From positions 5,448 through 69,447 of the forward strand of contig JBBTXS010000007.1 in assembly GCA_038062115.1 (NCBI GenBank): 64,000 nucleotides of DNA, given 5' to 3'. Every line of letters starts with the position of its first letter. The stretch's first letter is position 1. The notes under the pieces were generated by a model, which saw only the letters and a program-made list of their open reading frames with translations, did not search any database and was not told where the DNA came from. The translations under genes and the position numbers were made by a program. Below are positions 4,311 through 56,616 of the stretch, one piece after another. This stretch comes from Patescibacteria group bacterium (GTDB lineage: Bacteria > Patescibacteriota > Microgenomatia > Levybacterales > UBA12049).

Positions 4311-4413
4311 TTGTCATTCCGAGTGCAGTGAAACGGAGTCGAGGAATCTCTCTCAACAGGCTCAGGTCAAACAGATCCCTCCACTCCGCTATCGCTACGG
4401 TCGGGATGACAAA
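4311..4413. repeat. TGTCAT...ATGACA hairpin repeat, copy in a divergent intergenic region
   Basis: TTGTCATTCCGAGTGCAGTGAAACGGAGTCGAGGAATCTC...GGTCGGGATGACAAA. Flanked by an 18-bp perfect IR at 4287-4304 / 4442-4459. Confidence 0.75.
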
Positions 4414-6377: not shown

Positions 6378-6447
6378 TTGTCATTGCGAGCGTAGCGAAG
6401 CAATCTCATGAGATCGCCACGGCTACTTCGTAGCCTCGCGATGACAG
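6378..6447. repeat. TGTCAT...ATGACA hairpin repeat
   Basis: TTGTCATTGCGAGCGTAGCGAAGCAATCTCATGAGATCGCCACGGCTACTTCGTAGCCTCGCGATGACAG. Outer IR at 6357-6371 / 6453-6467. Confidence 0.75.
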
Positions 6448-10601: not shown

Positions 10602-10614
10602 GCATTTTAAATTT

Positions 10615-11490: not shown

Positions 11491-11546
11491 GTGTCATTCC
11501 CAGCTTGACTGGGAATCTAGATTCCCGCTTTCGCGGGAATGACGTG
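11491..11546. repeat. TGTCAT...ATGAC hairpin repeat (two-hairpin short form)
   Basis: GTGTCATTCCCAGCTTGACTGGGAATCTAGATTCCCGCTTTCGCGGGAATGACGTG. Outer IR at 11463-11487 / 11548-11568. Confidence 0.75.
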
Positions 11547-12102: not shown

Positions 12103-12688
12103 AGAAGGTATAAAAGTATTAAAAGAAGGCGGGATTGTAATTTTCCCAACAGATACTGCATTTGGGATAGGATGCAGAATTGACGATGAGAAAGCAATTG
12201 AGCGTCTTTTTGAGATACGAAAAAGACCAAAGACTCAAGCGACACCAGTTTTGCTAAATTCAGTTGAAATGGCAAGAAAGTATCTTGAAAAAATTCCCAA
12301 AGATGCCGAAGAAAAACTTATGAAAAAATATTGGCCCGGAGCACTTACTATAATACTGCGCTGTAATATAGTGAAAGTGCCATCGCTTGTGAGGGGCGGA
12401 GAAGCAACTTTGGGGGTTCGAATTCCCAATCATCCAATAACTCTTGGCTTAATTAGAGGAGTGGGAGTGCCTCTTGTTGGTCCTTCGGCAAATTTTCATG
12501 GAGAACGAACACCGTACGAAGCTGGCGACTTAAATAAAAAACTTATAAAATTGGCTGATTATGTGGTTTGGGGAGACTGTACATTAAAACAACATTCAAC
12601 TGTAATTGATTGCTCGGAAAAACCCTGGAAAATAATTCGCCAAGGCGCAATAAAATTAAAGCTTCATCATTTGTCATCCTCGACCTGA
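12089..12688 (+). CDS. tsaC: L-threonylcarbamoyladenylate synthase (Sua5/YrdC/TsaC)
   Basis: FPTDTAFGIGC, LGVRIPNH, GPSANFHG motifs. The last 7 codons and the stop lie inside a hairpin repeat. Confidence 0.8.
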   Translation: MEEIREGIKVLKEGGIVIFPTDTAFGIGCRIDDEKAIERLFEIRKRPKTQATPVLLNSVEMARKYLEKIPKDAEEKLMKKYWPGALTIILRCNIVKVPSLVRGGEATLGVRIPNHPITLGLIRGVGVPLVGPSANFHGERTPYEAGDLNKKLIKLADYVVWGDCTLKQHSTVIDCSEKPWKIIRQGAIKLKLHHLSSST

Positions 12689-12725
12689 TCGAGGATCTAG
12701 ATTCCCGCTTTCGCGGGAATGACAC
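12671..12725. repeat. TGTCAT...ATGACA hairpin repeat (short form) bridging tsaC and tsaB
   Basis: TTGTCATCCTCGACCTGATCGAGGATCTAGATTCCCGCTTTCGCGGGAATGACAC. The right half is identical to copy 11491..11546. Confidence 0.75.
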
Positions 12726-17856: not shown

Positions 17857-19149
17857 ATGACTATCACATTTATCGGTCATGGATATGTAGGACTTGTGTC
17901 AGCAGCAGCTTTTGCAGATTTGGGCAACACAGTTTGGGTAATTGGGCATACAAAAGAAAAGATTGAAAATCTTAAAAAAGGAATTCTTCCAATTTTTGAG
18001 CCAGGACTTGAAGAGATTGTTAAACGCAATATTAAACCAAAACGGCTAATTTTTACACTCGATTATACAAAAGCTATCCCTTCTTCTAGTGTTGTTTTTA
18101 TAGCTGTTGGTACTCCTCCAAAAACTAATGGCGAAGCAGATTTATCGATTGTATTTAAGGTAGCAGAAAAAATTGGAAGAAATCTTGGTAAATACACTGT
18201 TGTTGCAACAAAAAGCACTGTGCCAGTTGGGACAAATAAAAAAATAAAAAAAATTATTGCAGAAGCTATGCCAAAAAACGCAGATTTTGATATAGCCTCT
18301 ATTCCTGAATTTTTGCGAGAAGGACAGGCAATCTCCGACACGCTTCACCCAGATAGGATCGTAATAGGAACAGATTCCCAGAAAGCACTAGACATTTTGT
18401 TGGAATTGCACAAGCCGATTAATAGTAATAATGTTTTAACAAATATAGAGACAGCAGAAATGATTAAATATGCTGCAAACTCATTTCTTGCAACAAAGAT
18501 TTCATTTGCTAATGCTATTGCGCATTTATGCGAACTAACAGATGCAGATGGATTAAAAGTATTAGAAGGAATTGGATTTGATAAAAGAATTGGAAGCTCC
18601 TTTCTTAAACCTGGGGCTGGATTTGGAGGAAGTTGTTTTCCAAAAGACTTAAAAGCATTAATTGCGATTGCGAAAAAACAAGGTTACGATTTTGAACTTC
18701 TTAAAACAGTAGAAAAAATTAATTGTATGGCAACGGTAAATATTGTAACTAAAGCACGAAGACTTCTAGGCGGAAGCATTGAGAGGAAAACAATCGGAGT
18801 TTTGGGACTATCATTTAAGCCTGATACAGATGACATGAGAGATGCGCCATCAATAACAGTAATTAAAAAGCTTCAGGAAAGCAAAGCTATTATAAAAGGA
18901 TATGACCCAATTGCAATTAATAACGCTAAAAAGATTTTAAAAAATGTTGAATTTTGCAATGATTCTTATTCGGTTGCTAAAGATAGCGATATTTTGATTA
19001 TCATGACGGAATGGAATGAGTTTAGACAACTTGATTTACAAAAAATAAAAAACCTTATGAAAAAACCTATACTTCTTGATGGAAGAAACATATATGATCC
19101 TCAAACCGCCTCTCGAATTGGATTCACTTATATAGGAGTTGGACGATGA
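17857..19149 (+). CDS. ugd: UDP-glucose 6-dehydrogenase
   Basis: GHGYVGLVSAAAFADLG Rossmann start and the catalytic GFGGSCFPKD. Confidence 0.9.
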   Translation: MTITFIGHGYVGLVSAAAFADLGNTVWVIGHTKEKIENLKKGILPIFEPGLEEIVKRNIKPKRLIFTLDYTKAIPSSSVVFIAVGTPPKTNGEADLSIVFKVAEKIGRNLGKYTVVATKSTVPVGTNKKIKKIIAEAMPKNADFDIASIPEFLREGQAISDTLHPDRIVIGTDSQKALDILLELHKPINSNNVLTNIETAEMIKYAANSFLATKISFANAIAHLCELTDADGLKVLEGIGFDKRIGSSFLKPGAGFGGSCFPKDLKALIAIAKKQGYDFELLKTVEKINCMATVNIVTKARRLLGGSIERKTIGVLGLSFKPDTDDMRDAPSITVIKKLQESKAIIKGYDPIAINNAKKILKNVEFCNDSYSVAKDSDILIIMTEWNEFRQLDLQKIKNLMKKPILLDGRNIYDPQTASRIGFTYIGVGR

Positions 19150-20105
19150 AAAGAGTTCTTATCACTGGTATTACCGGATTTGCGGGTAGTCATCTTGCAG
19201 AATATTTATGTTCTAAAAAAGAATACGAGATTAGTGGAACATATTTATTGAATAAAAGCTTAGAGAATGTAGACGCAATAAGAGACAAGATACATCTTAT
19301 AAAAGTAGATTTAACAAACGCAAAAAAAGTATTAGAGCTGGTAGAAATAACAAAGCCAGATTTAGTTTTCAATATGGCTGGTTTGCCGTCTACAGCAGAT
19401 AGTTTTAAAAACCCAGCAGAGACGTTAATAAATAATATCTCTTTAGAAATAAATTTATTATCTGCAATAAAAGAGAATAAATTGCTAGATGCAAAGATTT
19501 TAATTATATCTTCGGCAGAGATATATGGACTGGTTAAAAAAGAAGATTTACCTATTGACGAGGAAACAAGACTCATGCCTACTAGTCCTTACTCTGTTTC
19601 TAAAATTGCACAGGATTTTTTGGGACTTCAATATTTTTTGTCTTACAATTTAAAAATAATTAGAGTAAGACCGTTTAATCATATAGGTCCTAGGCAATCA
19701 TCGCATTTTGTTGTAGCAGCAATAGCAAAAAAAATAGCAGAAATAGAAAAGGGAAAGAGAAAACCGATTTTGGCTGTTGGAAATCTTGAATCAAAGAGAG
19801 ATTTTACAGATGTAAGAGATATGGTTCGTGCTTATGCTATTACGCTTGAAAAAGGACAGTTGGGACAAGTTTATAATATAGGATCTGGCGTATCGCATAG
19901 AATTTACGATATATTGCATAAATTGCTTTTGCAATCCAGAGCAAAGATAACGGTGAAAAGTGATAAATCTTTATTTAGGCCGATAGATAATCCAGAATTA
20001 GTTTGTGATGCTAGTAAATTTAAAAGACTTACAAATTGGAAACCCGAGATTGAGCTTGCCGTTACTCTTAAAGATACGCTAGATTATTGGAGAAATATAG
20101 TTTAA
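19146..20105 (+). CDS. NAD-dependent sugar epimerase/reductase (GDP-4-dehydro-6-deoxy-D-mannose reductase-like)
   Basis: MKRVLITGITGFAGSHL, SPYSVSK. Adjacent to gmd. Confidence 0.7.
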   Translation: MKRVLITGITGFAGSHLAEYLCSKKEYEISGTYLLNKSLENVDAIRDKIHLIKVDLTNAKKVLELVEITKPDLVFNMAGLPSTADSFKNPAETLINNISLEINLLSAIKENKLLDAKILIISSAEIYGLVKKEDLPIDEETRLMPTSPYSVSKIAQDFLGLQYFLSYNLKIIRVRPFNHIGPRQSSHFVVAAIAKKIAEIEKGKRKPILAVGNLESKRDFTDVRDMVRAYAITLEKGQLGQVYNIGSGVSHRIYDILHKLLLQSRAKITVKSDKSLFRPIDNPELVCDASKFKRLTNWKPEIELAVTLKDTLDYWRNIV

Positions 20106-29461: not shown

Positions 29462-29532
29462 TGTCATGCCGAATTTATTTCGGCATCTAGTTCCTGAAAA
29501 GAGGAGATGCTGAAACAAGTTCAGCATGACAA
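29462..29532. repeat. TGTCAT...ATGACA hairpin repeat between secD and secF
   Basis: TGTCATGCCGAATTTATTTCGGCATCTAG...GGAGATGCTGAAACAAGTTCAGCATGACAA. Starts right at the secD stop. Confidence 0.75.
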
Positions 29533-30450: not shown

Positions 30451-30536
30451 TGTCATCCTAAACTTTTTTGCAGGATCTTGTTTCAGGATATTATCTGTCG
30501 AAAAAGGAGATGCTGAAATAAATTCAGCATGACAAA
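30451..30536. repeat. TGTCAT...ATGACA hairpin repeat after secF
   Basis: TGTCATCCTAAACTTTTTTGCAGGATC...GGAGATGCTGAAATAAATTCAGCATGACAAA. The right half is nearly identical to copy 29462..29532. Confidence 0.75.
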
Positions 30537-31609: not shown

Positions 31610-32395
31610 TTAGTACACCTTAACAAGCCCAATCTTAAGCACCTTATTGAAACTCTTTTTTAAGAAAATCAAAGACAAAACTATATAAATAGCGTTTAAT
31701 AAAAAGCTTAGGTATAGCTTATTTGGATCAAGGATTCCTCTTTCAATAACTTCTCTTGCTCCTTCAAACACATAGCTTGTGGGGATAAGTAATGCAATTG
31801 TTTGTGCCCATTCAGGTAGAGAAGAAACTGGGTAGTAAATTGCAGAAAATGGTGCAATAATCCATGGTGCAGTCCAGGCCAATGTTTGTATTTTAGTTCC
31901 AAATCTAAGGATAAGACCCGCAATAAAAAATCCCATCCACCAACCAGTCATAATTAAAAGAAGAGATAATGGAATCAAATATAAACCATATGCAAACACC
32001 TCAATTTTATAGAGGATAAAAGCAACAAGTAATCCAAAAGAAAAACTCATTACAGCTTTAATTACTCCTAATGTAACTAGAGAAACAACCCATTCGGAAA
32101 ATTTTAGCGGGGAAACAAAAATATTAACTAGGTTTCTATTCCATAAATCTTCTAAGATGCCAACGGTAATTTCGTATTGACCTCGCCACACAATAATCCA
32201 CAAAAGGATTCCTCCGAGAATAACTAAAACAATTTGAGAGGTTTGTGGAAGATATGACCTAAAATAGGAACTCGTGATTCCCCATAGCAGAAGATCTAAA
32301 GTTGGCCAATAAAAAGCATCGCTTAGTCTATCCAAGCTATGTCTAAACAAATACATAAATCTTAAAATAATTGCATAGATACGATGCAGTTTCAT
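31610..32395 (-). CDS. ABC-2 type transporter permease
   Basis: 261 aa with six TMs. Translationally coupled to the ATPase gene (4-nt overlap). Confidence 0.75.
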   Translation of the reverse strand: MKLHRIYAIILRFMYLFRHSLDRLSDAFYWPTLDLLLWGITSSYFRSYLPQTSQIVLVILGGILLWIIVWRGQYEITVGILEDLWNRNLVNIFVSPLKFSEWVVSLVTLGVIKAVMSFSFGLLVAFILYKIEVFAYGLYLIPLSLLLIMTGWWMGFFIAGLILRFGTKIQTLAWTAPWIIAPFSAIYYPVSSLPEWAQTIALLIPTSYVFEGAREVIERGILDPNKLYLSFLLNAIYIVLSLIFLKKSFNKVLKIGLVKVY

Positions 32396-33312
32396 AATCT
32401 TGTTTTATCAGCTATATATAAAAAATAATCTTCAAGAGTTGGCTTCTCAATACTTATTTCATCGTAATAAATTTTTTTACTCGTTAAATCTCGTAAAAAT
32501 TCAGGGATATTTTTTTCTTTTACATCAACAATTAAGTATCGGCCTTGAATTTTAAATGAGAAATTTTTTTCTTTGCAAAGCTCAATTATGTTTTTGAATC
32601 CATCGCTGATTAAGAGTTCTATATGGGACGTCTTAATCGATTTAGCAAGATTTTTTGGTATGTCATCTGCAATAATTTCTCCCTTGTTGATAAATATGAC
32701 TCTATCGCATACTTCCTCAACCTCGGCCATATTGTGAGAAGTAAGGATAATAGAGACTTTAAATTCTTTCTGTTGGTTTAACAAGAAATCACGGATATAG
32801 CGTGCTATATCTGGGTCTAGTGATGCAGTTGGTTCATCTAAAAGCAAAATTTTTGGAAAGTTAAGGAACGCTTTTGCTAAGTTGACTCTAGTAAGCTGTC
32901 CTGATGAAAGCTCATGAATTTGTTTGTTTATAAGCTCGCTAAGTCTAAATATTTCTTCAATCTTTCGTAACCTTGATCTTCGATCATTAATTATATATAG
33001 GTAAGACATGTAAGTTAAAACTTCTCTAACGGTTAAGTTCCATGGGAAATTAGTATAGCTAGAAGAAAAGTTTACCTGCTCAAGAATCTCTTCGCGATTT
33101 TCAGTTAGTTTTTTATCAAAATATTTTATATCGCCCGATGTCGGCGTTAGGACTCCGAGCAGCATTTGAATTGTCGTAGTTTTTCCGGCACCGTTTGGGC
33201 CTAAAAGACCAAGAATCTCTCCTTCTTTTAGAGAAAAAGAAATGTTATCAACTGCTGTGAATTCGCCGAATTTTTTGGTGAGATTTTTTACTTCTAAAAT
33301 TTGATTACTCAT
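32392..33312 (-). CDS. ABC transporter ATP-binding protein
   Basis: GPNGAGKTT, LSSGQLTR, LLLDEPTASLD. The real start is MSNQILEV at 33312. The ORF track extension to 33345 reads into a half hairpin repeat. Confidence 0.85.
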   Translation of the reverse strand: MSNQILEVKNLTKKFGEFTAVDNISFSLKEGEILGLLGPNGAGKTTTIQMLLGVLTPTSGDIKYFDKKLTENREEILEQVNFSSSYTNFPWNLTVREVLTYMSYLYIINDRRSRLRKIEEIFRLSELINKQIHELSSGQLTRVNLAKAFLNFPKILLLDEPTASLDPDIARYIRDFLLNQQKEFKVSIILTSHNMAEVEEVCDRVIFINKGEIIADDIPKNLAKSIKTSHIELLISDGFKNIIELCKEKNFSFKIQGRYLIVDVKEKNIPEFLRDLTSKKIYYDEISIEKPTLEDYFLYIADKTRL

Positions 33313-33313
33313 T

Positions 33314-33347
33314 TTGTCGTTGCGAGGAACGAAGTGACGAAGCAATC
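33314..33347. repeat. half copy of the hairpin repeat
   Basis: TTGTCGTTGCGAGGAACGAAGTGACGAAGCAATC, similar to the left half of copy 34798..34879. Confidence 0.55.
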
Positions 33348-33350
33348 TTT

Positions 33351-33768
33351 TTACTTGATTAGATTTATGTGCAAATCATTAAATGACGAATTATCTTTTC
33401 TAATAAGCTCAAGCTTCTTTATTCGTGAACCCGCTTTAATTTGTTTTTCTCTTCGTATAGCTTCATATATTGTATCAAATATTTCAAGATATACTAGCTT
33501 AGTTACATTATGACTGGGTCATAATTGTCATTTCGAGCTTGCCGAGAAATCTCCTTCAAAGAGATTCCTCGACTCGCTACACTCGCTCGGAATGACAAAT
33601 GAGTATTTATGTCCCAGTCACAGTTACATTATAGCGTGAAGTAAAACTAGATACCATTTTGTCTTTATGTTCGTACATGCGTCTTATTAGATTATTAGTG
33701 ACGCCTGTATATAAGACAGTATTTGTAAAATTCGTAGCAATATACACAAAATATTTTCTTGTATACAT
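33351..33768 (-). pseudogene. GIY-YIG nuclease (UPF0213-like) gene split by a 111-bp MITE
   Basis: The N-part MYTRKYFVYIATNFTNTVLYTGVTNNLIRRMYEHK...SRYNVT ends in the insert. The C-part KLVYLEIFDTIYEAIRREKQIKAGSRIKKLELI...HINLIK* (own translation, stop 33351-33353) resumes in a frame shifted by 1. Removing 121 bp restores one 98-aa ORF. Confidence 0.75.
33511..33621. mobile_element. MITE copy with TIRs and 10-bp target-site duplication
   Basis: TSD AGTTACATTA at 33501-33510 and 33622-33631. TIR TGACTGGGTCATAA (33511-33524) versus TTATGTCCCAGTCA (33607-33620), 13/14 complementary. The core is TTGTCATTTCGAGC...GGAATGACAAA. Confidence 0.8.
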
Positions 33769-33785
33769 TTTTATTGTTTCTTTAA

Positions 33786-33817
33786 GATTGCTTCGCTTCG
33801 GAGCTCGCAATGACAAA
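33786..33817. repeat. half copy of the hairpin repeat
   Basis: GATTGCTTCGCTTCGGAGCTCGCAATGACAAA. This is the right-half type. Confidence 0.55.
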
Positions 33818-33821
33818 TGGA

Positions 33822-35270
33822 TTAAGATATAATTTCTTTTATTCTCTCAAGCAAATACTCCTTATTATTTTTGGATAAATCTTCATCAACCTCTTCAAAA
33901 AGTTTTTGTAAAATTTCGCCAACTTTTGGTCCAGGTTTGATATTTAGCTCTTTCATAATATCGTTTCCATCAACTGAAAGGTCGTTGATAGAAAAAGGCG
34001 CTGGCTTTAATTGCTCTTCTATTCTTTTTTTGAAAAGTTTTAGTCTCCAACTTTCGGCAGTTTGAGTTCCTCCTCCTAGCCTATCGCCAATTCTTAAATC
34101 CATCATGTCTTTTACGCTCGTAATCCCTACTCTTCGAATAAATCTTCTAACTGCCGCATCTGTTATTTTTTCATCCACAGTAAACATATGCCAGCGTATA
34201 AGATTAACTATTTTATCGCGGTCTTTTCTTGAGAATCTTAGTCTATTGCATATTTCACCCACCATGTGCGCTCCTACAATTTCGTGGTTATGAAATATCA
34301 CAAGGCCCTTTTCATCCTTTTTTTCAACCTTTGGTTTCCCAACATCATGAAGAAGAGTCGCGAATCTAACGATTGGATCAACTGATGGGCAGAATTTTAA
34401 AGAAAGGATGTTATGCATGAAGACGTCAGATGTATGGTGTCTGCCGGGACGAACTTGCGAAACCCCAATTCCTTCCAAAAGTTCTGGCAGAATGTATTGT
34501 AAAAGAGAAGAGTTTTTTAGAAGCATTATTCCGTCGTATGGATGCTTGCTTGCTAAGATTCTTAATAGCTCAATTCTTACTCTTTCTCCGGAAATTTCTC
34601 TGATAAGCTGAGCATCGGAAATAATTTCTTCCCAAGTTTTGTTCTCGATAGTAAAACCGTGTTCGGTTGCAATTCTTATTGCCCGAATAAGCCTTAATGC
34701 GTCTTCTTTGAATCTTTGTTTTGGATCTCCAACGGAGCGAATAATTTTGTCTTTAATATCTTGCTGACCGCCAAAAGGATCAACAATAATACTTTTATTG
34801 TCATTGCGAGGAACCCGCTGAGCGGGTGACGAAGCAATCCCATCCTTCGGAGATTGCTTTGCTTTGCTCGCAATGACAGAGGCTGTATATTCAATTTTTA
34901 GTGCTATGGCGTTGACAGTAAAGTCGCGGCGAGATAGATCTTCTTCGATAGATTTTCCCCACTTAACGATCTTAGGATGTCTTCTATCAAAGTATTCGTG
35001 CTCGGTTCTAAACGTTGTAACTTCGACAGTATGCTTTTTTCCAAATAGCTCTACTGGAATGCCAACAGTTCCAAATTTGTTGTCATAAAACCCATTAGGA
35101 AAAAGATTTAGTATTTGTTCCGGAGTTGCATTTGTTGTAAAGTCCCAATCTTTAATCTCCTTTTCCATCAAAAGATTTCGGACACAACCACCAACAAAAT
35201 AAACTTCAAAACCAGCATCTTGGAATTTGTTATAAATTTCTAAAATTTCCTTTGGAATATGTTCAGTCAT
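33822..35270 (-). CDS. cca: CCA-adding enzyme / tRNA nucleotidyltransferase with HD domain
   Basis: GGCVRNLL, DWDFTT, RRDFTVNA, LLHDVGKP motifs. Contains one in-frame repeat insertion. Confidence 0.85.
   Translation of the reverse strand: MTEHIPKEILEIYNKFQDAGFEVYFVGGCVRNLLMEKEIKDWDFTTNATPEQILNLFPNGFYDNKFGTVGIPVELFGKKHTVEVTTFRTEHEYFDRRHPKIVKWGKSIEEDLSRRDFTVNAIALKIEYTASVIASKAKQSPKDGIASSPAQRVPRNDNKSIIVDPFGGQQDIKDKIIRSVGDPKQRFKEDALRLIRAIRIATEHGFTIENKTWEEIISDAQLIREISGERVRIELLRILASKHPYDGIMLLKNSSLLQYILPELLEGIGVSQVRPGRHHTSDVFMHNILSLKFCPSVDPIVRFATLLHDVGKPKVEKKDEKGLVIFHNHEIVGAHMVGEICNRLRFSRKDRDKIVNLIRWHMFTVDEKITDAAVRRFIRRVGITSVKDMMDLRIGDRLGGGTQTAESWRLKLFKKRIEEQLKPAPFSINDLSVDGNDIMKELNIKPGPKVGEILQKLFEEVDEDLSKNNKEYLLERIKEIIS
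34798..34879. repeat. hairpin repeat inserted in frame inside cca
   Basis: TTGTCATTGCGAGGAACCCGCTGAGCGGGTGACGAAGCAATCCCATCCTTCGGAGATTGCTTTGCTTTGCTCGCAATGACAG. Read as ...SVIASKAKQSPKDGIASSPAQRVPRND... on the minus strand. Confidence 0.75.
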
Positions 35271-35350
35271 ATCTGTTATAGTATAACAGAAGGGGTTAAG
35301 TTCTGAAATGATTTAACTTTAAACGACGGCCGTCGAAAGAAATTAAATGT

Positions 35351-37120
35351 ATGAAGGGGTGGAAAATCATTAGTGAATCGGGAATAAAGAATCAGGAATC
35401 AGGCATTAAGGACTTGATAGAAATTTTATTAAGCAATAGAGGGCTAAAGACAAAAAAGGAAATAGAAGAGTTTTTAAATCCTAAATTGGAAAATGTAACA
35501 ATTAAGAATGTTGGGATCGATAAAAGACAACTTCGGAAAACAATTGGGAGAATTCAAAAATCCATAAAAAATAAAGAGAAAATTGTTGTTTTTGGCGACT
35601 ATGATGTGGATGGGATTTGCGGATCAGCAATTCTTTGGGAAACTCTTAATGGTTTGGGAGCAAGTGTTATGCCGTATATACCGCATAGGATGGATGAAGG
35701 ATACGGGCTTTCTATGAAAGCAATTCAAAATTCAGAATTCAGAATTCAGAATATCAAATTGATTATAACAGTAGATAATGGAATTGTTGCAAATGAGGCG
35801 GTTAAATATGCTAAAGATCAAGGTATTGATGTTATTATTACCGATCACCATGTTCCATCTAAGAAACTTCCCGATGCTTTTGCTATAGTTCACACGACAA
35901 AACTTTGTGGAGCAGGAGTTGCTTGGGTTCTCTCTTCTGTCATTCTGAATTCATTTCAGAATCTCAATATTTTGGAGAACAAGACCCTGAAACAAGTTCA
36001 GGGTAACAATAATAAAAATAATCTTTTAGAATTGGTAGCACTTGCTACGATTGCAGATCTTGTTTCTCTTTTGGGAGCAAATAGAATACTTGTTAAGTTT
36101 GGACTTGAAGCCCTCCGAAGAACAAAAAGGGTTGGTCTTTTGGAGCTATTAAAAGAAGCAGTATTGGAAAAAGATAAAATTGGAGTTTATGAAATAGGAC
36201 ATATAATTGCGCCAAGATTAAATGCAATGGGGCGATTAGAGTATGCAATGGATAGTTTAAGGTTATTATGTACAAAAAACAGAGACAGAGCAAGAATGTT
36301 GGCTCAAACTTTAGGAAGTACAAATAGGGAGCGACAGGCACGGACATTAACTACTGTTAAGCATGCAAAATCAGCAATTCAGAATTCAGAATTCAGAATT
36401 CAGAATTTATTGTTTGTTGCACACGAGAGTTATCAACAAGGGGTTATTGGGCTAGTTGCTGGGAAATTGGTAGAAGAATATTATCGACCTACAATTGTAG
36501 TTTCAAAAGGAGAGATTTACAGCAAGGCATCAGCTAGATCAATTAACGGTTTTAATATTATTGAATTTATACGAAGTGCATCTGAATATTTAGTGGATGC
36601 TGGGGGCCATCCAATGGCTGCTGGTTTTACAGTTGAAACTTCTAAACTTGCTTTAGTTCAGAAAACTCTCGAGAATAAAGCAGAGTCTTTACTTGACGAG
36701 GAAAAATTGACAAGAACTCTTAGGATTGACTGTGAGCTAGATTTATCATTAGTAAACAATAAGTTATATGACGCAATTCAAAAACTTGCACCTTTTGGAA
36801 TGGGGAATCCTGAACCAACGTTTGTTGGTAGAGGCGTTGAGATTCAAGATATAAGAACTGTTGGAAGAGAAGCAAAGCATTTAAAGCTGCAATTAGTGTG
36901 TCATCCTGAGGCTTTAGCCAAAGGATCTCATGAGATTCTTCGCTTCGCTCAGAATGACAAGGGAATGATTGATGGGATTGCGTTTGGGATGGGAGAGAAG
37001 TATTCTCAATTTCATGTTGGGGATGCGGTTGATATAGCTTATACGGTTGATGAAAATAAGTGGAATGGAAATAAAAAGTTGCAGTTAAAGATAAAGGATT
37101 TAAAGCTATCGAGGTCTTGA
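35351..37120 (+). CDS. recJ: single-stranded-DNA-specific exonuclease RecJ
   Basis: FGDYDVDGICG, IITVDNG, ITDHH, GGHPMAAG motifs. Four repeat-derived in-frame insertions. Confidence 0.85.
   Translation: MKGWKIISESGIKNQESGIKDLIEILLSNRGLKTKKEIEEFLNPKLENVTIKNVGIDKRQLRKTIGRIQKSIKNKEKIVVFGDYDVDGICGSAILWETLNGLGASVMPYIPHRMDEGYGLSMKAIQNSEFRIQNIKLIITVDNGIVANEAVKYAKDQGIDVIITDHHVPSKKLPDAFAIVHTTKLCGAGVAWVLSSVILNSFQNLNILENKTLKQVQGNNNKNNLLELVALATIADLVSLLGANRILVKFGLEALRRTKRVGLLELLKEAVLEKDKIGVYEIGHIIAPRLNAMGRLEYAMDSLRLLCTKNRDRARMLAQTLGSTNRERQARTLTTVKHAKSAIQNSEFRIQNLLFVAHESYQQGVIGLVAGKLVEEYYRPTIVVSKGEIYSKASARSINGFNIIEFIRSASEYLVDAGGHPMAAGFTVETSKLALVQKTLENKAESLLDEEKLTRTLRIDCELDLSLVNNKLYDAIQKLAPFGMGNPEPTFVGRGVEIQDIRTVGREAKHLKLQLVCHPEALAKGSHEILRFAQNDKGMIDGIAFGMGEKYSQFHVGDAVDIAYTVDENKWNGNKKLQLKIKDLKLSRS
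35722..35752. repeat. tandem AATTCAG heptamer array (about 4.4 units) inside recJ
   Basis: aattcaaaattcagaattcagaattcagaat, encoding AIQNSEFRIQN. Confidence 0.8.
35938..36009. repeat. hairpin repeat inserted in frame inside recJ (72 nt)
   Basis: TGTCATTCTGAATTCATTTCAGAATC...CCCTGAAACAAGTTCAGGGTAACAA, encoding VILNSFQNLNILENKTLKQVQGNN. Confidence 0.7.
36376..36407. repeat. second tandem AATTCAG heptamer array (about 4.5 units) inside recJ
   Basis: aattcagaattcagaattcagaattcagaatt, again encoding AIQNSEFRIQN. Confidence 0.8.
36899..36960. repeat. hairpin repeat inserted in frame inside recJ
   Basis: TGTCATCCTGAGGCTTTAGCCAAAGGATCTCATGAGATTCTTCGCTTCGCTCAGAATGACAA, encoding CHPEALAKGSHEILRFAQNDK. 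Confidence 0.7.
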
Positions 37121-37369
37121 TTTATTTAAACTCTCTTGCCGCCATCTTTCGCCGTCAATAGCTTGTCTCAAATCTTGTATATATTTTTCAGCATCTCCAA
37201 ATAAGCCCACCTTATTTCTGCCTTCTCTTCTAGCAGCATCTCCTGCTTTCAAGGTTATTCCTGTGGGATCAAGACCTAATTTTAAAGCCTTTACGACTAA
37301 ATCCCGTGTTCCCTTAGAGGGAGTGAGTCCTCCAAACATTGCCGTATGACGACCGTTTTCTTTATTCAT
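37106..37369 (-). CDS. hypothetical protein (87 aa)
   Basis: ORF track. Convergent with recJ, overlapping its 3' end by 15 nt. No family recognised. Confidence 0.4.
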   Translation of the reverse strand: MNKENGRHTAMFGGLTPSKGTRDLVVKALKLGLDPTGITLKAGDAARREGRNKVGLFGDAEKYIQDLRQAIDGERWRQESLNKSRPR

Positions 37370-37471
37370 AATTTAGATATTTTAAGGTTATAAGCTGAGT
37401 CTCGCTTGACAATTTGCTGACAAATTCCTGACACAACAAAGTGCTTGTCAAGAGAAGAAAACCAATGTATT

Positions 37472-38875
37472 ATGTATCAAGTATTAAGTATTATGTATCA
37501 AGTATTGAAAAGGACACTTGTAAGCGAAACGCCAACTCTAAGAAATAAAGAAGTTTTAGTGAAAGGCTGGGTTAGAATACGGAGAGATCATGGAAAGTTG
37601 ATTTTTCTTGACATTCGCGATAGGTCGGGTTTAATACAGGTGGTTGTCAATCCAAAAGTTTCAAAAAGCGCTTACCAAGTTGCACAAACCATAAGATCAG
37701 AATTTGTGGTTGAGATTGTTGGAAGAGTAAATAAAAGACCAAAAGAAGCTGTTAATAAGAATTTGCCAACAGGAGGAGTTGAGGTTGAAGCAACAGGAAT
37801 CGTTATACTTTCAAAAGCAGAAACTTTGCCTTTTGATATGGGAGGAGAAGATTTAAAGCTTGAATTGCCAACTCTTTTAGATCATAGATCTTTAACTCTG
37901 CGTCATCCAAAAATAGCTGCCATATTTAAAGTACAGAATGTTATTGTCGATTCTTTCAGAAGATTTATGCAACAGAATGACTTTTTTGAATTCCAATCGC
38001 CACTGATTATTCCAGCTGCTCCAGAGGGAGGAGCAGATGTTTTTGCAGTATCATATTTTGGGCAAAAAGTATACCTTGCGCAAAGTCCCCAGCTTTATAA
38101 GCAAATTTTGGTCGGAGCATTCGAGCGCGTGTTTACAGTTACACAGATTTTTCGGGCGGAACCATCCGTTACTACACGACATTTAGCAGAAGTTACAGTT
38201 TTGGATGCGGAGATGGGATTTATAGAAAGTTGGAAAGATGTAGAAAAAATGGCGGCAGAAACAATTATGTTTATACTAAAGGATATTCAAGAAAAATGCG
38301 CACAAGAACTTAAAATGTACAAAGTGGAGAATCCAAAAGTAAAAGATGAAATCCCATCCCTAAAACTTAGAGAAGCGCAGGAAATTATTTTCAAGCGGAC
38401 AGGGAGAGATAATAGGAGGGAAAAAGATTTATCTCCAGATGATGAGCGAGAAATTTGCAAATGGTCGCTTGAGGAAAAAGAATCAGATCTAGTTTTTGTT
38501 TCGCATTATCCAACTAAATCAAGGCCATTTTATACGTACCCAGACGATGAGGATCCTAAGTTTAATCAAGGCTTTGATTTGTTGGGTAGAGGGTCTGAGT
38601 GGTTGACTGGGGGCAGAAGAATTAATGACTACAAAACACTGATTAATCACGCCATCGAATGGGGGATAGATCCAAAGAAAATAAAACTATATTTAGATTC
38701 ATTTAAATATGGTATGCCGAGAGAGGGAGGATTCTCTTTTGGGACGGAGAGAATTACAATGCAAACGTTAGGACTTGCAAATATTCGGGAAGCAAGTCTT
38801 TTTCCACGAGACATGGAGCGGGTCGATGAAAGATTTTCAAAAATTGATCAAAAAAGCAAAAAGACTTCTACATAA
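37472..38875 (+). CDS. aspS: aspartyl-tRNA synthetase, archaeal/eukaryotic type
   Basis: OB-fold GWVRIRRDHGKLIFLDIRDRSG, QSPQLYKQ, FRAEPSVTTRHLAEV, GGFSFGTERI. The start is ambiguous (ATG 37472 or 37493) because of a 21-bp tandem duplication. The ORF track start 37445 is TTG. Confidence 0.85.
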   Translation: MYQVLSIMYQVLKRTLVSETPTLRNKEVLVKGWVRIRRDHGKLIFLDIRDRSGLIQVVVNPKVSKSAYQVAQTIRSEFVVEIVGRVNKRPKEAVNKNLPTGGVEVEATGIVILSKAETLPFDMGGEDLKLELPTLLDHRSLTLRHPKIAAIFKVQNVIVDSFRRFMQQNDFFEFQSPLIIPAAPEGGADVFAVSYFGQKVYLAQSPQLYKQILVGAFERVFTVTQIFRAEPSVTTRHLAEVTVLDAEMGFIESWKDVEKMAAETIMFILKDIQEKCAQELKMYKVENPKVKDEIPSLKLREAQEIIFKRTGRDNRREKDLSPDDEREICKWSLEEKESDLVFVSHYPTKSRPFYTYPDDEDPKFNQGFDLLGRGSEWLTGGRRINDYKTLINHAIEWGIDPKKIKLYLDSFKYGMPREGGFSFGTERITMQTLGLANIREASLFPRDMERVDERFSKIDQKSKKTST

Positions 38876-39794
38876 GCCGGTGGAAGCAAAAGGCATACTT
38901 CAACACGCAGTACTACCGATTTATGCTATTGTTTTATTTGTAATTCTTGTTATAGATATTAGTGTACAGCAATATAATTACTCTAATAAAATAATTCCAT
39001 CGCCAATTTACCCTGAGGTTTCGTATTATCCAATTCTAACGGAGAGTTTAAAACCAAATATTTCTGCAAAAGCAGCAATTGTTATGGATAATGACTCGAA
39101 AGTTATATTATTTGCTAAAAATCCAAAATTGTTGTTTTCTATGGCGTCCACTACAAAAATAATGACAGCATTAGTTGCTATGGATTACTATAGTTTGGAC
39201 GACGTATTAACTGTAAAAACAACAGGAGCCGGCGGAATAACAATAGGTCTTAAAAAAGGACAAAGAATATTATTTAAAGACTTATTGCATGCAATGCTTC
39301 TGCCTTCAAGCAATGACGCAGCTTTAACTTTGGCTCAAAATTATAGTGGCGGCGAAAAAGCATTTATAAATAAAATGAACGAATATGCGAGACTTTTACA
39401 CCTTTTTAATACTAGCTTTGCTGATCCTGCCGGTTTACTAGATGGAGAGGATTATACAACGCCTCTAGATCTAGCAAGACTGGCATCAATTGCTTTAAAA
39501 AACAAAATGTTTGCTCAAATAGTTGCTACAAAACATAAAATAATTTCTGACGTTGACGGATTTAATTATTCCATTTTTAATTTAAATAAGTTGTTGGGAA
39601 TAGATGGAATAAATGGAGTAAAAACTGGATTTACAGATGAAGCAGGAGAAGTTTTGGTTACATCAAAAAAGACTCGTGATGGACATATGCTTATTGCTGT
39701 TGTTATGAACAGTGAAGATAGATTTTTGGATACAAAAATACTGTTAAATTATGTTTCGGGAAATATTAAGTATTTAGACACACACAATTTTTAA
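38826..39794 (+). CDS. D-alanyl-D-alanine carboxypeptidase (peptidase S11)
   Basis: SxxK (SMASTTK), SxN (PSSND) and KTG (VKTGFT) motifs. ATG 38826 overlaps the aspS 3' end. Confidence 0.75.
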   Translation: MKDFQKLIKKAKRLLHKPVEAKGILQHAVLPIYAIVLFVILVIDISVQQYNYSNKIIPSPIYPEVSYYPILTESLKPNISAKAAIVMDNDSKVILFAKNPKLLFSMASTTKIMTALVAMDYYSLDDVLTVKTTGAGGITIGLKKGQRILFKDLLHAMLLPSSNDAALTLAQNYSGGEKAFINKMNEYARLLHLFNTSFADPAGLLDGEDYTTPLDLARLASIALKNKMFAQIVATKHKIISDVDGFNYSIFNLNKLLGIDGINGVKTGFTDEAGEVLVTSKKTRDGHMLIAVVMNSEDRFLDTKILLNYVSGNIKYLDTHNF

Positions 39795-39816
39795 TTTCTT
39801 GTAACTTCAATGGGAA

Positions 39817-40872
39817 TTATCTCCCATCTTCATTTACCCATTCCTCTTTAACCGCAGAAATATATGCAAAAAAATCGTTATCTCCTTCAAAAATAATTAT
39901 TGGCATTAGATATTTTTGCTCTTCTTTTCCTAAATAGTAGGCAAGAGCCATATTTTTTATAGCAACATTTATGTCTTTTCCAGCAAAGGAAGAAATATAT
40001 GCTTTTCCCTGTTTTAATTCCAAAAAAGCGTTGGATGCAGACTTAATTGGATATGTGGCAGATTCATTTGATATATTTTTGTAAGAATATAAAGCCTCAA
40101 CAACTTGAGGGTTATCCTGTCCTCCAGAAATTAGTAAATTAATGGTTGATGATATAGGCTTAGGATAATATATGGGCAGTTTATCTATGTTGTTCTGAAA
40201 AAAATCAACCCTTATTATTTGTGCTTTAGAAATACTGGTTGAAGGTATAATTGTATAGTTTTTAATTGTATGATAGCTCGTTTTTGTTTTTGTAGTGTTA
40301 ATGTCGTTTGGAAAAGACGACAGACTCTCAAGGAACGTTTTGGCAATATTTATAGCCTCACTCTCGTTTGGAAGATTTATGCCTGATTGAATTGTTGGAT
40401 CTGTAACAAATGACGAAGAGAATGTAAAATCAGAAGATAGGATATTAAATGCTATTTTTCTAAGTAGTGTAGTTCTGTCTATCCACTGATAAGTGTTTTC
40501 CGAAATAAGAGACTTTTGAGTGCCAAAACCAAGCTTAGAAACTTTGTCTTGAGCCTTTTCTAGAGAAAGAAAATCTGCTCTGTTGGGAGTAATTTTGTAT
40601 ATTTTTGCCCTATCTGGAAATATAGGGAGAGTCCCAGAAATTGTGTCGAGTGTATACTTTAATACTTTATCGGTTGCATTTGTTGGAAATTTAAGCGCTT
40701 CAAGTTTGCCAAAAGACACAGTTGGCGGAGGGGGTGGGGTTGGATAAAATTTTTCCTTAATTACAGGCCCAATTTTTGCAACTATAAAAACAATAAGCAG
40801 TGTTGATATTATGATAGAGCCCCATTTAATTATAAATTTTGTTTCTGAGGTAACTTTACTTAGAGTTGCCAT
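39817..40872 (-). CDS. membrane-anchored hypothetical protein
   Basis: ORF track 351 aa. N-terminal TM followed by PPPPP. Confidence 0.5.
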   Translation of the reverse strand: MATLSKVTSETKFIIKWGSIIISTLLIVFIVAKIGPVIKEKFYPTPPPPPTVSFGKLEALKFPTNATDKVLKYTLDTISGTLPIFPDRAKIYKITPNRADFLSLEKAQDKVSKLGFGTQKSLISENTYQWIDRTTLLRKIAFNILSSDFTFSSSFVTDPTIQSGINLPNESEAINIAKTFLESLSSFPNDINTTKTKTSYHTIKNYTIIPSTSISKAQIIRVDFFQNNIDKLPIYYPKPISSTINLLISGGQDNPQVVEALYSYKNISNESATYPIKSASNAFLELKQGKAYISSFAGKDINVAIKNMALAYYLGKEEQKYLMPIIIFEGDNDFFAYISAVKEEWVNEDGR

Positions 40873-40886
40873 AACTTAAATACTAA

Positions 40887-40971
40887 TTTGTCATTCCGAG
40901 CGAGCCAAGTCTGACTTGGCGAGTCGAGGAATCTCTTTGCAGGGGATTTCTCGACAAGCTCGAAATGACAA
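40887..40971. repeat. hairpin repeat, close relative of the 33511..33621 MITE core
   Basis: TTTGTCATTCCGAGCGAGCCAAGTCTGACTTGGCGAGTCGAGGAATCTCTTTGCAGGGGATTTCTCGACAAGCTCGAAATGACAA. Also shares flanking AAATACT.A and ATTAT with the 33.5-kb copy. Confidence 0.8.
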
Positions 40972-41023
40972 TTATTCCCAATCATACCTTGAGTATAGGG
41001 AAAAGTTGAGGTACAATGCAAGT

Positions 41024-44982: not shown

Positions 44983-45056
44983 TGCCGAGTCGTCTAATGG
45001 TAGGACACGACCCTCTGGAGGTCGCTATTGGGGTTCGAATCCCTGCTCGGCAGCCA
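44983..45056 (+). tRNA. tRNA-Gln (anticodon CTG), CCA encoded
   Basis: Hand-folded cloverleaf: acceptor TGCCGAG/CTCGGCA, anticodon arm CGACC-CTCTGGA-GGTCG, T arm TGGGG-TTCGAAT-CCCTG, discriminator G, then CCA. Confidence 0.85.
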
Positions 45057-51283: not shown

Positions 51284-52228
51284 ATGATGCTTGGGGGGAA
51301 AGTTGCATCTGTCTTTCCAGGACAAGGATCGCAATTTGTAGGTATGGGTTTTGAGTTGTATCAAAACTCAAGATCAGCAAGAGACGTATTTGACGAGGTG
51401 GATCAGGCTTTGAGATTTAAGCTCTCAAGACTGATTTTTGAAGGATCAGACAAGGATCTTACAGATACAATTAACTCTCAGCCGGCGATAACGGCTGTTA
51501 GCATAGCAAGCGTTAAAGCATTAGAAGAAACTTTAGGAAATAAAATACCACAATCTGAAGTGGTGGCTGGTCATAGCTTGGGATTCTATACATCTCTGGT
51601 TGTGGCAGGCGTTATACCTCTTAGCGATGGAGTGAGGTTAGTAAGAGAACGGGGTAGGTTGATGAAGGAGGAGTCAGCAAAACGGCCAGGAGGAATGGTT
51701 GCTATAATTGGACTCGATCAATTGACGTTGGAAGAAATATGCCAAGAGGTAGGGGCTGAGATTTCAAATATTAATTCTCTTAATCAGTTAATAATCAGTG
51801 GGGATAGAATTGCTCTTGCACGAGCAACGGATCTTGCGTCTGCCAGAGGAGCAAGAAAAGCTGTTTCTTTGGCTGTGAGCGGAGCTTTTCATTCTTCTCT
51901 AATGGGGGGAGCAAGAGACGAATTAGCTAGAATAATTAATGCGATGGAATTTAATGACCCAAAAATTCCAATAGTGGGGAATTCGAATGCAAAATTCTTA
52001 ACTACAGCACAGGAAGTTAAAGAAGAATTAATAGATGGATTGTGCAATTGTGTTCAATGGCATAAGTCGGTACTCAATATGGTTAACTTTGGTGTATCCC
52101 ACTTTATTGAATTTGGGCCGGGCAGGGTGCTTAGCGGTTTGATTAGGCAAATAGACGAAAGTGTTCAAGCTTTTAGTATTAATTCTCCAGGTTCTATTCA
52201 AAAGCTAGCAAACGCAATGGCGCCCTAA
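51284..52228 (+). CDS. fabD: malonyl-CoA:ACP transacylase
   Basis: VFPGQGSQFVGMG, GHSLGFYTS (GHSxG), SGAFHS. Start chosen at MMLGGK. Confidence 0.85.
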   Translation: MMLGGKVASVFPGQGSQFVGMGFELYQNSRSARDVFDEVDQALRFKLSRLIFEGSDKDLTDTINSQPAITAVSIASVKALEETLGNKIPQSEVVAGHSLGFYTSLVVAGVIPLSDGVRLVRERGRLMKEESAKRPGGMVAIIGLDQLTLEEICQEVGAEISNINSLNQLIISGDRIALARATDLASARGARKAVSLAVSGAFHSSLMGGARDELARIINAMEFNDPKIPIVGNSNAKFLTTAQEVKEELIDGLCNCVQWHKSVLNMVNFGVSHFIEFGPGRVLSGLIRQIDESVQAFSINSPGSIQKLANAMAP

Positions 52229-52261
52229 GAAGTAATTCCTGTTCTAATTAGTCGCTTATTT

Positions 52262-52366
52262 TAGTAGACCTATACGAAAAAATTCGAACCTCTTTCATAT
52301 TAAAAAGGTAGTCGCTCTCTTCGTTCGCTCCTTCTATTTTATATTGCTCGGCCTTCGGCCTCGCTC
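52262..52366 (+). repeat. island left junction (core TAGTAG) plus arm W
   Basis: tagtagACCTATACGAAAAAATTCGAACCTCTT...ATTTTATATTGCTCGGCCTTCGGCCTCGCTC. An inverted copy lies at 58866-58962; the first ~31 and last ~32 nt are identical and the middle has diverged. Confidence 0.8.
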
Positions 52367-52947
52367 TTTTGTATTTTTTGCGATTGGACCGACGACTATG
52401 TGCGCGATTTTTTTTGGAACTCCAAAATGGATTATATCAGGTTTTTCTTTAATCCGTTTCAACCCACCCACCCGATTATGGTGGCGGCGACCCCGCCTTT
52501 GGGCGCTAGGTCCCGCTTGGGCGGGACTCGCCAATGTTTTTACTTTTCTAAAATCCTATACAGTCTCTTCCCAACTCCAGACCAATTTAGTATCGTTGCG
52601 CCGTCGGCGGGGTACTTCCGCTTTTCGCCCCCGCCGCTGTTATTTTACCCCTTCCTGTTCATGAAGCATCGTCCCGCCCTTGGCGGGACTTGTGGTAGCT
52701 CGGTTGGCTCACCCGCCTGTTTTCTAAAACCATAGTATGATTTCGGCGGGTTCGCGTTGGTCGGGCTACCTATCCAAAACATATCTTACGTTAAAGTTTT
52801 TCTGACGGTAGCCCTCCCTTTAGCAAAGATTCCATGATGGGGCGGGGTCGGCGGACGCCGCCAAAACTAATCGGCCAGAATGGTGGAAATTGGCCGTCCG
52901 TCTTTAATATTTCCCATGAAAGTGCTAGAATTCAAAGTAAACAAGAT
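52367..52947. ncRNA. GC-rich, hairpin-dense non-coding block (candidate structured RNA)
   Basis: Repeated GTCCCGC(C)-YTTGG-GCGGGAC hairpins at ~52510-52528 and ~52671-52689. A 9-bp stem GGTAGCTCG/CGGGCTACC (52694-52702 / 52762-52770) encloses CCCGCC...GGCGGG. Only overlapping low-complexity ORFs on both strands. Confidence 0.35.
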
Positions 52948-55310: not shown

Positions 55311-55342
55311 GCCGAAATTATAGACAAAAAGCTTATTAAAAA

Positions 55343-55966: not shown

Positions 55967-56055
55967 AATAAGTGGTTATTATTTACCACCTTGCAAATAG
56001 TACCACTATCTGTAATAATATGTCAATAAGCAAAATAAAGGCAGGTGAATAAAAG

Positions 56056-56592: not shown

Positions 56593-56616
56593 GAAGAGTA
56601 TTTTATCAACTAGTTT

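Follow-up and report, generated by a model that had tools for sequence, protein, structure and literature searches.

Analysis of a 64,000-nt stretch of the genome of a Patescibacteria group bacterium (Levybacterales; GenBank assembly GCA_038062115.1, contig JBBTXS010000007.1, positions 5,448 to 69,447; hereafter the window) revealed a family of short palindromic repeats, three copies of which lie in frame inside protein-coding genes, one in cca, encoding the CCA-adding enzyme, and two in recJ, encoding a single-stranded-DNA exonuclease (hereafter recJ#1 and recJ#2). The explanation that best accounts for the observations jointly, and which we regard as probable, is that these copies belong to a dispersed family of double hairpins, comparable to doublets of repetitive extragenic palindromes (REPINs) and to transposable elements of the miniature inverted-repeat type (MITEs), that survives within genes as in-frame loops, with a small GIY-YIG nuclease as its most likely mobilizing enzyme.

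Repeat family and in-frame copies in cca and recJ

The double hairpins have the termini TGTCATYSNRAG and CTYNSRATGACA, i.e., terminal inverted repeats, and the pattern TGTCAT-N(38-95)-ATGACA has nine exact matches in the window compared to 0.07 + 0.08 (0.15) expected from dinucleotide shuffles, with none of 100 shuffles attaining the observed counts. Two further copies, at 11492-11544 and 35938-36010 (recJ#1), have one altered end, and the census for the whole window comprises 11 complete copies and two separated arms. The nucleotide similarity of the genic segments to the repeat family, proposed in an initial annotation of this DNA, thus holds.

Each element consists of two inverted arms forming a head-to-head doublet, each arm having the order TGTC, stem, loop, complementary stem and C. 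An exact reverse complement of the five nucleotides after (T)GTC, followed by C, is present within about 40 nt in 21/22 arms; the stems are 5-8 nt long, and at least seven distinct, mutually compensated stems occur (e.g., ATTGC/GCAAT, ATTCT/AGAAT, ATCCT/AGGAT, ATTCCCAG/CTGGGAAT and ATGCCGAA/TTCGGCAT). The count of 100% pairing at the arm ends is partly circular, the 3' ends having been picked by complementarity to the pentamer, and it is the existence of a complementary pentamer in nearly every arm, not the shuffle statistic, that is the telling evidence for arm pairing. MAFFT alignment and RNAalifold folding of 77 arms recovered the outer 5-bp stem alone because the inner stems vary in length and are out of register. 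The compensated stems therefore indicate that the self-folding arm is the conserved unit and that the element is a REPIN-like doublet.

Regarding the genic copies (coordinates in Table 1), the initial annotation had described both open reading frames (ORFs) as continuous through the repeats, with inserts that keep the frame and lack stop codons in the frame used. Translation of both genes agrees with this, and the positions given there are right to within 1-2 nt. The cca gene is a single open frame through the 80-nt element, which is made up of exactly two canonical arms and is read as residues S131-D157 (...YTASVIASKAKQSPKDGIASSPAQRVPRNDNKSIIVDPFGG) between the RRDFTVNA and DPFGG blocks; its RNA has a predicted folding energy of -39.4 kcal/mol (z -6.9 vs shuffles). 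Opposite residues 126-157 of this protein the Bacillus stearothermophilus CCA enzyme (1MIV) runs directly from residue 121 to residue 122. In an AlphaFold2 (AF2) model with an overall predicted local distance difference test (pLDDT) score of 87.6, for which Foldseek returned CCA enzymes, residues 131-155 have pLDDT <50 and lie between strands 123-127 and 159-163, which places the insert at a predicted beta-hairpin tip between motif B (RRDFTxNA) and DPFGG.

The recJ gene is likewise a single open frame through both of its elements. RecJ is 100% identical to a protein of a Patescibacteria metagenome-assembled genome (MAG; P0121), and the closest relatives of both Cca and RecJ are named Candidatus Levybacteria (Microgenomates, candidate phyla radiation, CPR). 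The AF2 model of RecJ has an overall pLDDT of 87.9 and a template modeling (TM) score of 0.81 to Staphylococcus aureus RecJ (8Y30). The right terminal motif of recJ#1 is altered (GTTAC instead of GTCAT) and its arm hairpin ACCCTGAA/TTCAGGGT is intact (fold -21.1 kcal/mol, z -3.6); the insert lies opposite a 19-aa gap in 8Y30, and residues 205-220 have pLDDT <50 between helices 187-203 and 222-235. The recJ#2 copy (fold -22.8 kcal/mol, z -3.4) is at a beta-hairpin tip of the OB-fold domain, with pLDDT of ~62-66 between strands 510-516 and 539-544, and its arm stems ATCCT/AGGAT and ATTCT/AGAAT are the same as those around a GIY-YIG gene on a Planktothrix plasmid described below. The expectation of the initial annotation that the insertion points would be surface loops is thus borne out by the AF2 predictions, in which all three are low-pLDDT loops between secondary-structure elements.

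Orthologues, sister lineage and independent assemblies

Comparison with 119-120 orthologues gave modal lengths of 18, 16 and 13 residues for the cca, recJ#1 and recJ#2 regions, versus 43, 37 and 29 in the window. The segments are absent from the proteins of unrelated lineages (1MIV and 8Y30), and most Levybacteria have short loops; the cca insert in particular is missing in most Levybacteria orthologues, including orthologues that are 77-79% identical and have plain short loops (e.g., P0003 and P0004). The checks against orthologues suggested by the initial annotation thus agree with its claim, and on this alignment evidence all three segments are true insertions of the repeat family. A protein-database search with the three insert peptides concatenated returned no candidate sharing three 5-residue words.

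A contig of a sister lineage (L001) with the same gene order and 77% DNA identity has the cca insert, with a left arm identical at 26/27 positions, and the recJ#1 insert, and is without recJ#2, which is also missing in most orthologues. Its recJ#1 copy has additional in-frame pieces and indels, and another insert of the family is present at a fourth recJ site; a shared insert has later been changed by in-frame indels and ordinary codon substitutions. Being common to both lineages, the cca and recJ#1 copies most likely predate their split, though a gene conversion event, or more than one insertion into the same position, may be an alternative, and recJ#2 is lineage-specific, being either newer or lost in the sister. 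At the same sites other orthologues have peptides of different subfamilies and reading frames (VIAS..PRND, RHSG..SGQARMT, CHPE..QND, VIPAKAGIQ and VILNSF..MLKQVQHD), the recJ#1 site being a variable insert hotspot among them, and the cca and recJ insert loops therefore appear to be recurrent hotspots.

Positions 31851-40600 match, without any difference, both a 375-kb contig from Hainich groundwater and NCBI assembly GCA_964361775.1; in two more assemblies, from other samples, a single base is changed and there is no indel (four assemblies, three Hainich groundwater samples). All three inserts are present throughout, so that they are not an assembly artefact. Among 80 metagenomic recJ loci, retrieved by DNA pattern and not by gene calls, 79 are intact, and one locus (L083) has true elements at the same two sites, in frame. 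A lenient terminal-repeat detector applied to these loci gave 11 calls, nine of which were false positives, L083 alone being real.

These data bear on the possibility that the segments are chance resemblances within lineage-specific variable loops, or that repeats have led to a chimeric assembly. All three sites vary in length across all Levybacteria, and mis-joins at repeats can occur in MAGs. Yet the termini match exactly over 6 + 6 nt, intergenic copies and other phyla have nearly the same arms, the number of matches is far above the shuffle expectation, the four assemblies agree, and the inserts recur in sister species that were assembled independently; chance or chimerism is hardly credible as an explanation.

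A side observation in recJ concerns a tandem heptamer, (AATTCAG)n, at 35719-35752 and 36373-36406, translated as QNSEFRIQN. The heptamer is one base off the 16-nt palindrome ATTCTGAATTCAGAAT, which is the arm stem of recJ#1, and QNSEFRI-like strings occur at the OB-hairpin site in many orthologues. In L001 a hairpin-repeat insert stands in place of the first heptamer run of the window.

Selective retention, removal and exaptation

Long ORFs occupy 84% of the window while only 3/11 complete copies are genic (binomial P = 4e-5), and the family is thus strongly depleted from coding DNA. It is neither intrinsically coding-neutral nor frame-neutral, as element length is a multiple of 3 in 4/11 copies and 22/66 frames are free of stops; all genic copies seen (window, L001 and L083) are nevertheless in frame and stop-free. 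The initial annotation had offered two alternatives for this state, that selection retains only tolerated in-frame insertions in surface loops, or that the elements are removed or bypassed at the RNA or protein level. Coding depletion, the lack of intrinsic frame neutrality, the location at length-variable loop tips and the later in-frame evolution of the inserts together support the first alternative, which is therefore favored, and with it the reading that the inserts are translated as tolerated loops. The additional segments are predicted to comprise 21-27 residues and are probably largely disordered and at the surface, since AF2 confidence is low only in the inserts, each of which lies between flanking strands or helices, while the remainder of both models matches solved structures.

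The proposed course of events is that double-hairpin copies would land throughout the genome and selection would remove almost all genic insertions, leaving survivors that keep the frame, have no stop and lie at a beta-hairpin tip or an inter-helix loop. Surviving copies would be transcribed and translated with the gene as 21-27 additional surface residues and would afterwards change as protein segments under weak constraint do, and the same few loops would be struck repeatedly by different subfamilies in related species.

The second alternative, removal of the inserts before the mature protein is formed, could take the form of excision from the mRNA (intron-like, or by RNase III processing of the hairpin with religation), of ribosomal bypass or of protein splicing. 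The mRNA hairpins are very stable, above all in cca, and the recJ#2 peptide starts with Cys and ends with Asn-Asp, both of which would be in line with removal. However, group I and II introns are far larger than these elements of 59-80 nt, and even mini-inteins exceed 100 aa compared to the 21-27 aa of the inserts, in which no intein blocks are found. There is no match to an Rfam family, intron or ribozyme in the region, and neither a stop codon nor matched take-off and landing codons for bypass. Removal would not require the open, in-frame state seen in every genic copy, in a family of which only a third of the frames are open and which is strongly depleted from genes. Furthermore, recJ#1 has lost its terminal motif and the L001 copies have in-frame indels, which would damage an excision signal, and the genes are still intact. 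Intein, intron and translational bypass readings are thus disfavored, and removal is very improbable.

Exaptation, in which the loop, or the mRNA or DNA hairpin, would now be useful (in partner contact, translational pausing or regulation) and not merely tolerated, finds some backing in the retention of the cca insert in two species at 77% DNA identity, with its nearly unchanged left arm, in the presence of an insert at the recJ#1 site in more than half of 119 orthologues, and in hairpin potential retained within coding sequence, including a compensated arm in recJ#1. The inserts are, however, patchy among close relatives, with many orthologues of 77-79% identity lacking them; unrelated subfamilies in different reading frames occupy the same sites, the peptides are predicted to be disordered, and conservation of third versus first and second codon positions in the insert is not significantly different from that in the remaining gene. 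Exaptation is accordingly an unlikely explanation, and tolerated, translated loops remain the favored one.

As to whether the host genes are essential, as the initial annotation had called them, the description stands for cca but not necessarily for recJ, which is conserved. Of the tRNA genes at 44983-45056 (tRNA-Gln) and 60685-60757 (tRNA-Glu), the first encodes its 3' CCA and the second does not, CAA following there. Cca must therefore be active, and the organism depends on its insert-bearing CCA-adding enzyme.

GIY-YIG unit beside cca

A decayed copy of the gene for the candidate mobilizing enzyme lies next to cca. A 501-bp block comprising an arm, a GIY-YIG ORF and a second, inverted arm lies between the cca stop and the true start of an ABC-transporter ATPase gene; the whole block is missing in L001 and in a further related contig (L002), where 10 nt separate the cca stop from the ABC start. 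In the window the ORF is split by a composite MITE whose outer inverted repeats are GTGACTGGGACATAA / TTATGACCCAGTC and which is flanked by the 11-bp direct duplication ATAATGTAACT (33501-33511 and 33622-33632), and a decayed second copy of this MITE is present at ~40870-40990, around the double hairpin at 40889-40970. A double hairpin also forms the MITE core, so that another element serves as an additional carrier for at least one hairpin subfamily. Both halves of the ORF are recovered by tblastn, and the reconstructed 98-aa protein, with the MITE removed, gives a full-profile match to Pfam GIY-YIG (PF01541, E 3.9e-15) and no other Pfam match. No other transposase-like gene in the window is linked to the arms.

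Association of GIY-YIG genes with arms across phyla

More than 576 relatives of this protein turned up in a scan that covered one genome per species; the best 80 of them (54-71% identical) were examined, with 77 loci having enough flank. These 80 belong to CPR, Cyanobacteria, Chloroflexi, Omnitrophota, Bacteroidota/Ignavibacteria, Planctomycetota, Proteobacteria, Nitrospirota and others, and such identity across phyla suggests horizontal spread of the nuclease clade. The inverted arm motif is present on both sides within 200 nt in 57/77 loci, compared to 7/64 and 6/64 in controls taken at a distance of 500-700 nt. In the typical locus the start of the left motif is 35-65 nt before the ATG and the end of the right motif is 30-45 nt after the stop, a spacing conserved across phyla. 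The arm consensus is TGTCATTGCGAG, a variable mini-hairpin and CGAAGCAATCTC, and GCGNAGC, an unusually stable DNA mini-hairpin, occurs in 24/77 arms versus 2.9 in shuffles. In the distal flanks of the GIY-YIG loci the arm density is 2.05 per 10 kb, while unrelated CPR recJ loci totaling 167 kb have none.

The ORFs encode single-domain proteins of 91-102 aa. Among 81 sequences Y9, Y20-T-G, R30, H34, E55 and REKQIKAGSR are conserved at 90% or more, and the nuclease is under strong purifying selection. Its closest solved relatives are the UPF0213 proteins 1ZG2 and 1YWL. The GIY-YIG/UPF0213 (Slx1/YhbQ/YazA) family includes the structure-selective nuclease Slx1 (PMC7017083), which cuts branched and hairpin DNA; no activity, target or mobility role is reported for UPF0213 in the literature searched. 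A structure-specific GIY-YIG nuclease would act on hairpins that are extruded or single-stranded, and the double hairpins that have no ORF would be non-autonomous derivatives of the arm-ORF-arm unit.

A finished replicon, the Planktothrix agardhii plasmid NZ_LR882964.1 (locus L287), has at 18530-19446 a GIY-YIG gene within dense arrays of arms and half-arms belonging to the recJ#2 subfamily. The gene is annotated just as "GIY-YIG nuclease family protein," and its neighbors are a type IIL MmeI restriction-modification gene and the DISARM gene drmA; gene and arms thus sit inside a defense island. Regarding phages, a family copy lies in frame (VIPDSIRDPEILKQVQDD) at 8373-8426 of contig IMGVR_UViG_3300037264_007091 (L180), just after a Portal_Mu domain (Pfam E 6.5e-87); its presence in a Mu-like phage portal gene indicates that the in-frame behavior is not confined to CPR bacteria. 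Long read-through ORFs in the GC-rich viral contigs L178, L201 and L204 were apparent wrong-frame artefacts and were not counted.

The alternative to mobilization by the nuclease is that its gene is a homing-type selfish gene targeting pre-existing repeats, or that arms accumulate around it or regulate it, with another enzyme or recombination spreading the repeats. Arms are common without a nearby GIY-YIG gene, as in the viral contigs, and one double hairpin sits inside a conventional MITE with an 11-bp target duplication. Two copies from one Chloroflexi genome have sequence in common no further than the right arm's inner end, as would be expected had the ORF moved by recombination between arm contexts, and the arm contexts of Nostoc loci are rearranged; these two observations make homing into pre-existing arms a live alternative. 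On the other hand, the entire block of arm, ORF and arm is found in the window and missing in L001/L002, the distance between arm and ORF is similar in different phyla, arms are enriched in GIY-YIG-bearing genomes, and the window has no other transposase-like gene tied to the arms. A nuclease that is not the mobilizer is, on balance, somewhat unlikely, and mobilization by the GIY-YIG protein is the reading retained here.

Several points weigh against this reading and against that of the inserts. The link between the nuclease and the arms is an association, from which we infer mobilization; the sole GIY-YIG copy in the window is a pseudogene, and the tight-arm subfamily to which recJ#1 belongs would be tied to GIY-YIG by shared architecture only. 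Arms were found in >120 IMG/VR contigs, and 1.05 Mb of these (120 loci) contained no GIY-YIG homologue, while the Nostoc and Chloroflexi loci are messy arrays and not neat arm-ORF-arm units. Regarding alleles without the inserts, for which the initial annotation had recommended a check of sister genomes, L001 provides one for recJ#2 but not for cca or recJ#1, and the Hainich assemblies of the same population yielded no allele free of the inserts. Neither a target-site duplication nor a clean empty site is definable for the genic inserts, since the loop tips of the window, L001 and L002 have diverged too far from one another, and the hotspots shared by orthologues may have arisen either by separate hits or from old insertions that were later replaced or lost. 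A codon-position test of protein-level constraint in the shared cca insert had too few sites and was not significant.

Taken further, these elements may represent an undescribed class of prokaryotic mobile element of ~380 bp, in which a gene for a 95-aa structure-specific GIY-YIG nuclease lies between two self-folding arms, which would operate in the manner of REPINs and their associated tyrosine transposases (RAYTs) but with another nuclease fold, which would be spread horizontally across at least 12 phyla and phage contigs, and whose ORF-less double hairpins would recurrently seed new peptide loops in essential CPR proteins. This broader proposal is possible but is put forward tentatively.

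Comparison with known elements

Rickettsia palindromic elements (RPEs) were reportedly described by Ogata et al. in Science in 2000 and in Genome Research in 2002. The family described here resembles them in being dispersed palindromes in frame in unrelated housekeeping genes, at fold-compatible positions, in a small-genome bacterium. RPEs are palindromic repeats of ~100-150 bp that are specific to Rickettsia and in frame in housekeeping genes, with no known mobilizing enzyme (PMC10969869). In contrast, and comparing size, host range and behavior, the family in the window measures 50-100 bp, has two self-folding arms with TGTCAT termini, is found in many phyla and phage contigs, and is linked to a GIY-YIG nuclease gene.

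The REP/REPIN elements and RAYT transposases, which are said to have been characterized by Nunvar in 2010, by Bertels and Rainey in 2011 and by Ton-Hoang in 2012, share with the present family short imperfect hairpins with a conserved 5' motif, inverted doublets able to form a long hairpin, a small nuclease gene flanked by inverted units, and no visible target-site duplication; a consistent flanking direct repeat was not found around 10 copies in the window, and several flanks extend the palindrome instead. They differ in that the flanked gene here encodes a ~95-aa GIY-YIG protein (PF01541) and not an HUH/Y1 RAYT, that REPs are extragenic by definition whereas three copies here are fully inside genes, and that RAYTs are mostly inherited vertically, unlike a nuclease clade with this level of identity across phyla.

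Bacterial MITEs include ERIC, Correia/NEMIS, BOX, Nezha and cyanobacterial MITEs (PMC10969869). Like MITEs, the double hairpins are small non-autonomous elements with terminal inverted repeats, lie for the most part between genes with occasional in-frame ORF fusions, and sometimes have ends in common with an autonomous partner. However, a classical MITE is a derivative of a DDE-transposase insertion sequence and leaves target-site duplications, whereas no duplication was found for the double hairpins, and the only partner found that has the same ends codes for a GIY-YIG nuclease and no known transposase.

GIY-YIG homing endonuclease genes are known as well, among them those of I-TevI and the Seg proteins. 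The protein described here has a catalytic domain with the same conserved Tyr, Arg, His and Glu, and its gene is present or absent at an otherwise conserved cca-ABC site; the homing endonucleases, however, are of ~250 aa (200-300) with extra DNA-binding domains, while this protein is a bare domain of ~95 aa. Neither the repeat sequence nor a GIY-YIG protein in connection with MITE, REP, terminal inverted repeats or COG2827 is described among the literature searched, where matches were only primer coincidences or eukaryotic elements.

Other copies and features of the window

The features are listed in Table 1; the G+C content of the window is 35.7%. Larger, unrelated inverted repeats enclose intergenic double hairpins at 4281-4465, ~6353-6470 and ~11466-11563; they are possibly terminators or older elements, and the nesting hints at insertion into the loops of pre-existing hairpins. 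The ORF at 12089-12688 obtains its last five codons and stop from the copy at 12672-12724, which is a C-terminal fusion and not an internal insert. The left arm stem of this copy is wholly changed compared to the 11492 copy yet still pairs (ATCCTCGA/TCGAGGAT against ATTCCCAG/CTGGGAAT).

Table 1. Coordinates of the host genes, the repeat copies and the GIY-YIG unit in the window.
Feature	Position	Strand	Remarks
Family copy, intergenic	4312..4411		Nested in larger 29-nt inverted repeat 4281-4309 / 4437-4465
Family copy, intergenic	6379..6446		Left arm TGTCATTGCGAGCGTAGCGAAGCAATC identical to arms flanking GIY-YIG genes in other phyla
Family copy, intergenic	11492..11544		Tight 8-bp arms
Family copy	12672..12724		Overlaps 3' end of ORF 12089-12688
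Family copy, intergenic	29462..29531		
Family copy, intergenic	30451..30534		
GIY-YIG unit, 501 bp	33315..33815	-	Left arm 33786-33815; ORF start 33768, stop 33351-33353; right arm 33315-33347
Composite MITE, 110 bp, splitting GIY-YIG ORF	33512..33621	-	Carries hairpin copy 33526-33597 in core
cca, class II CCA-adding enzyme with HD domain, 482 aa	33822..35270	-	PDB matches 1MIV, 6IBP, E ~1e-44
Double-hairpin repeat in cca (GAG-type arms), 80 nt	34799..34878	-	In frame; exact TGTCAT...ATGACA match
recJ, single-stranded-DNA exonuclease, 589 aa, host of two inserts	35351..37120	+	PDB match 8Y30, E 8e-75
Double-hairpin repeat recJ#1 (tight 8-bp arms), aa 197-220	35938..36010	+	In frame, peptide VILNSFQNLNILENKTLKQVQGNN
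Double-hairpin repeat recJ#2, aa 517-537	36899..36959	+	In frame, peptide CHPEALAKGSHEILRFAQNDK; exact pattern match
Family copy, intergenic	40889..40970		95% complementary to 33526-33597 copy

Downstream of recJ, a long ORF similar to aspartyl/asparaginyl-tRNA synthetases (37445-38875) opens with a direct repeat, ATGTATCAAGTATT(A/G)A twice at 37470-37505, read as MYQVLSIMYQVLK, while gene callers start this gene further downstream (467 or 460 aa). An imperfect 42-nt tandem repeat at 11083-11190 encodes a Pro/Thr-rich low-complexity segment (PTSTPIPTNTPTPS...) near the C-terminus of the ORF 10555-11466. The region 52200-60800, adjoining tRNA-Glu, is a probable integrated mobile island with genes for a methylase of the Dcm type together with Vsr, a LexA-like repressor, a reverse transcriptase and, after it, a PD-(D/E)XK nuclease, as well as a large serine recombinase. 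A 106-nt, 98% identical inverted repeat (58955-59060 / 60511-60616) brackets the recombinase gene; further inverted repeats are at 52259-52366 and 58866-58966, and G+C dips to 0.29 at 56-58 kb.

Implications

Until now, selfish palindromes lying in frame within housekeeping genes have been regarded as a peculiarity of Rickettsia. That a free-living CPR bacterium from groundwater shows the same behavior suggests that small repeats give rise to new protein segments by a general route, a suggestion supported by the repeated hits to the same loops in relatives and by the copy in a phage portal gene. It would account for some of the unusual inserts and differences in length seen among CPR proteins, as well as for many spurious "hypothetical proteins" predicted on these repeats; gene callers and domain models should expect such inserts, and MAG curators should not read them as frameshifts or chimeras. 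The link to GIY-YIG/UPF0213 provides a concrete, testable candidate for the mobilizing enzyme and a possible function for the UPF0213 family, for which solved structures exist (1ZG2 and 1YWL) and no role is known. If confirmed, REPINs and RAYTs would have a second, independent counterpart that relies on another nuclease.

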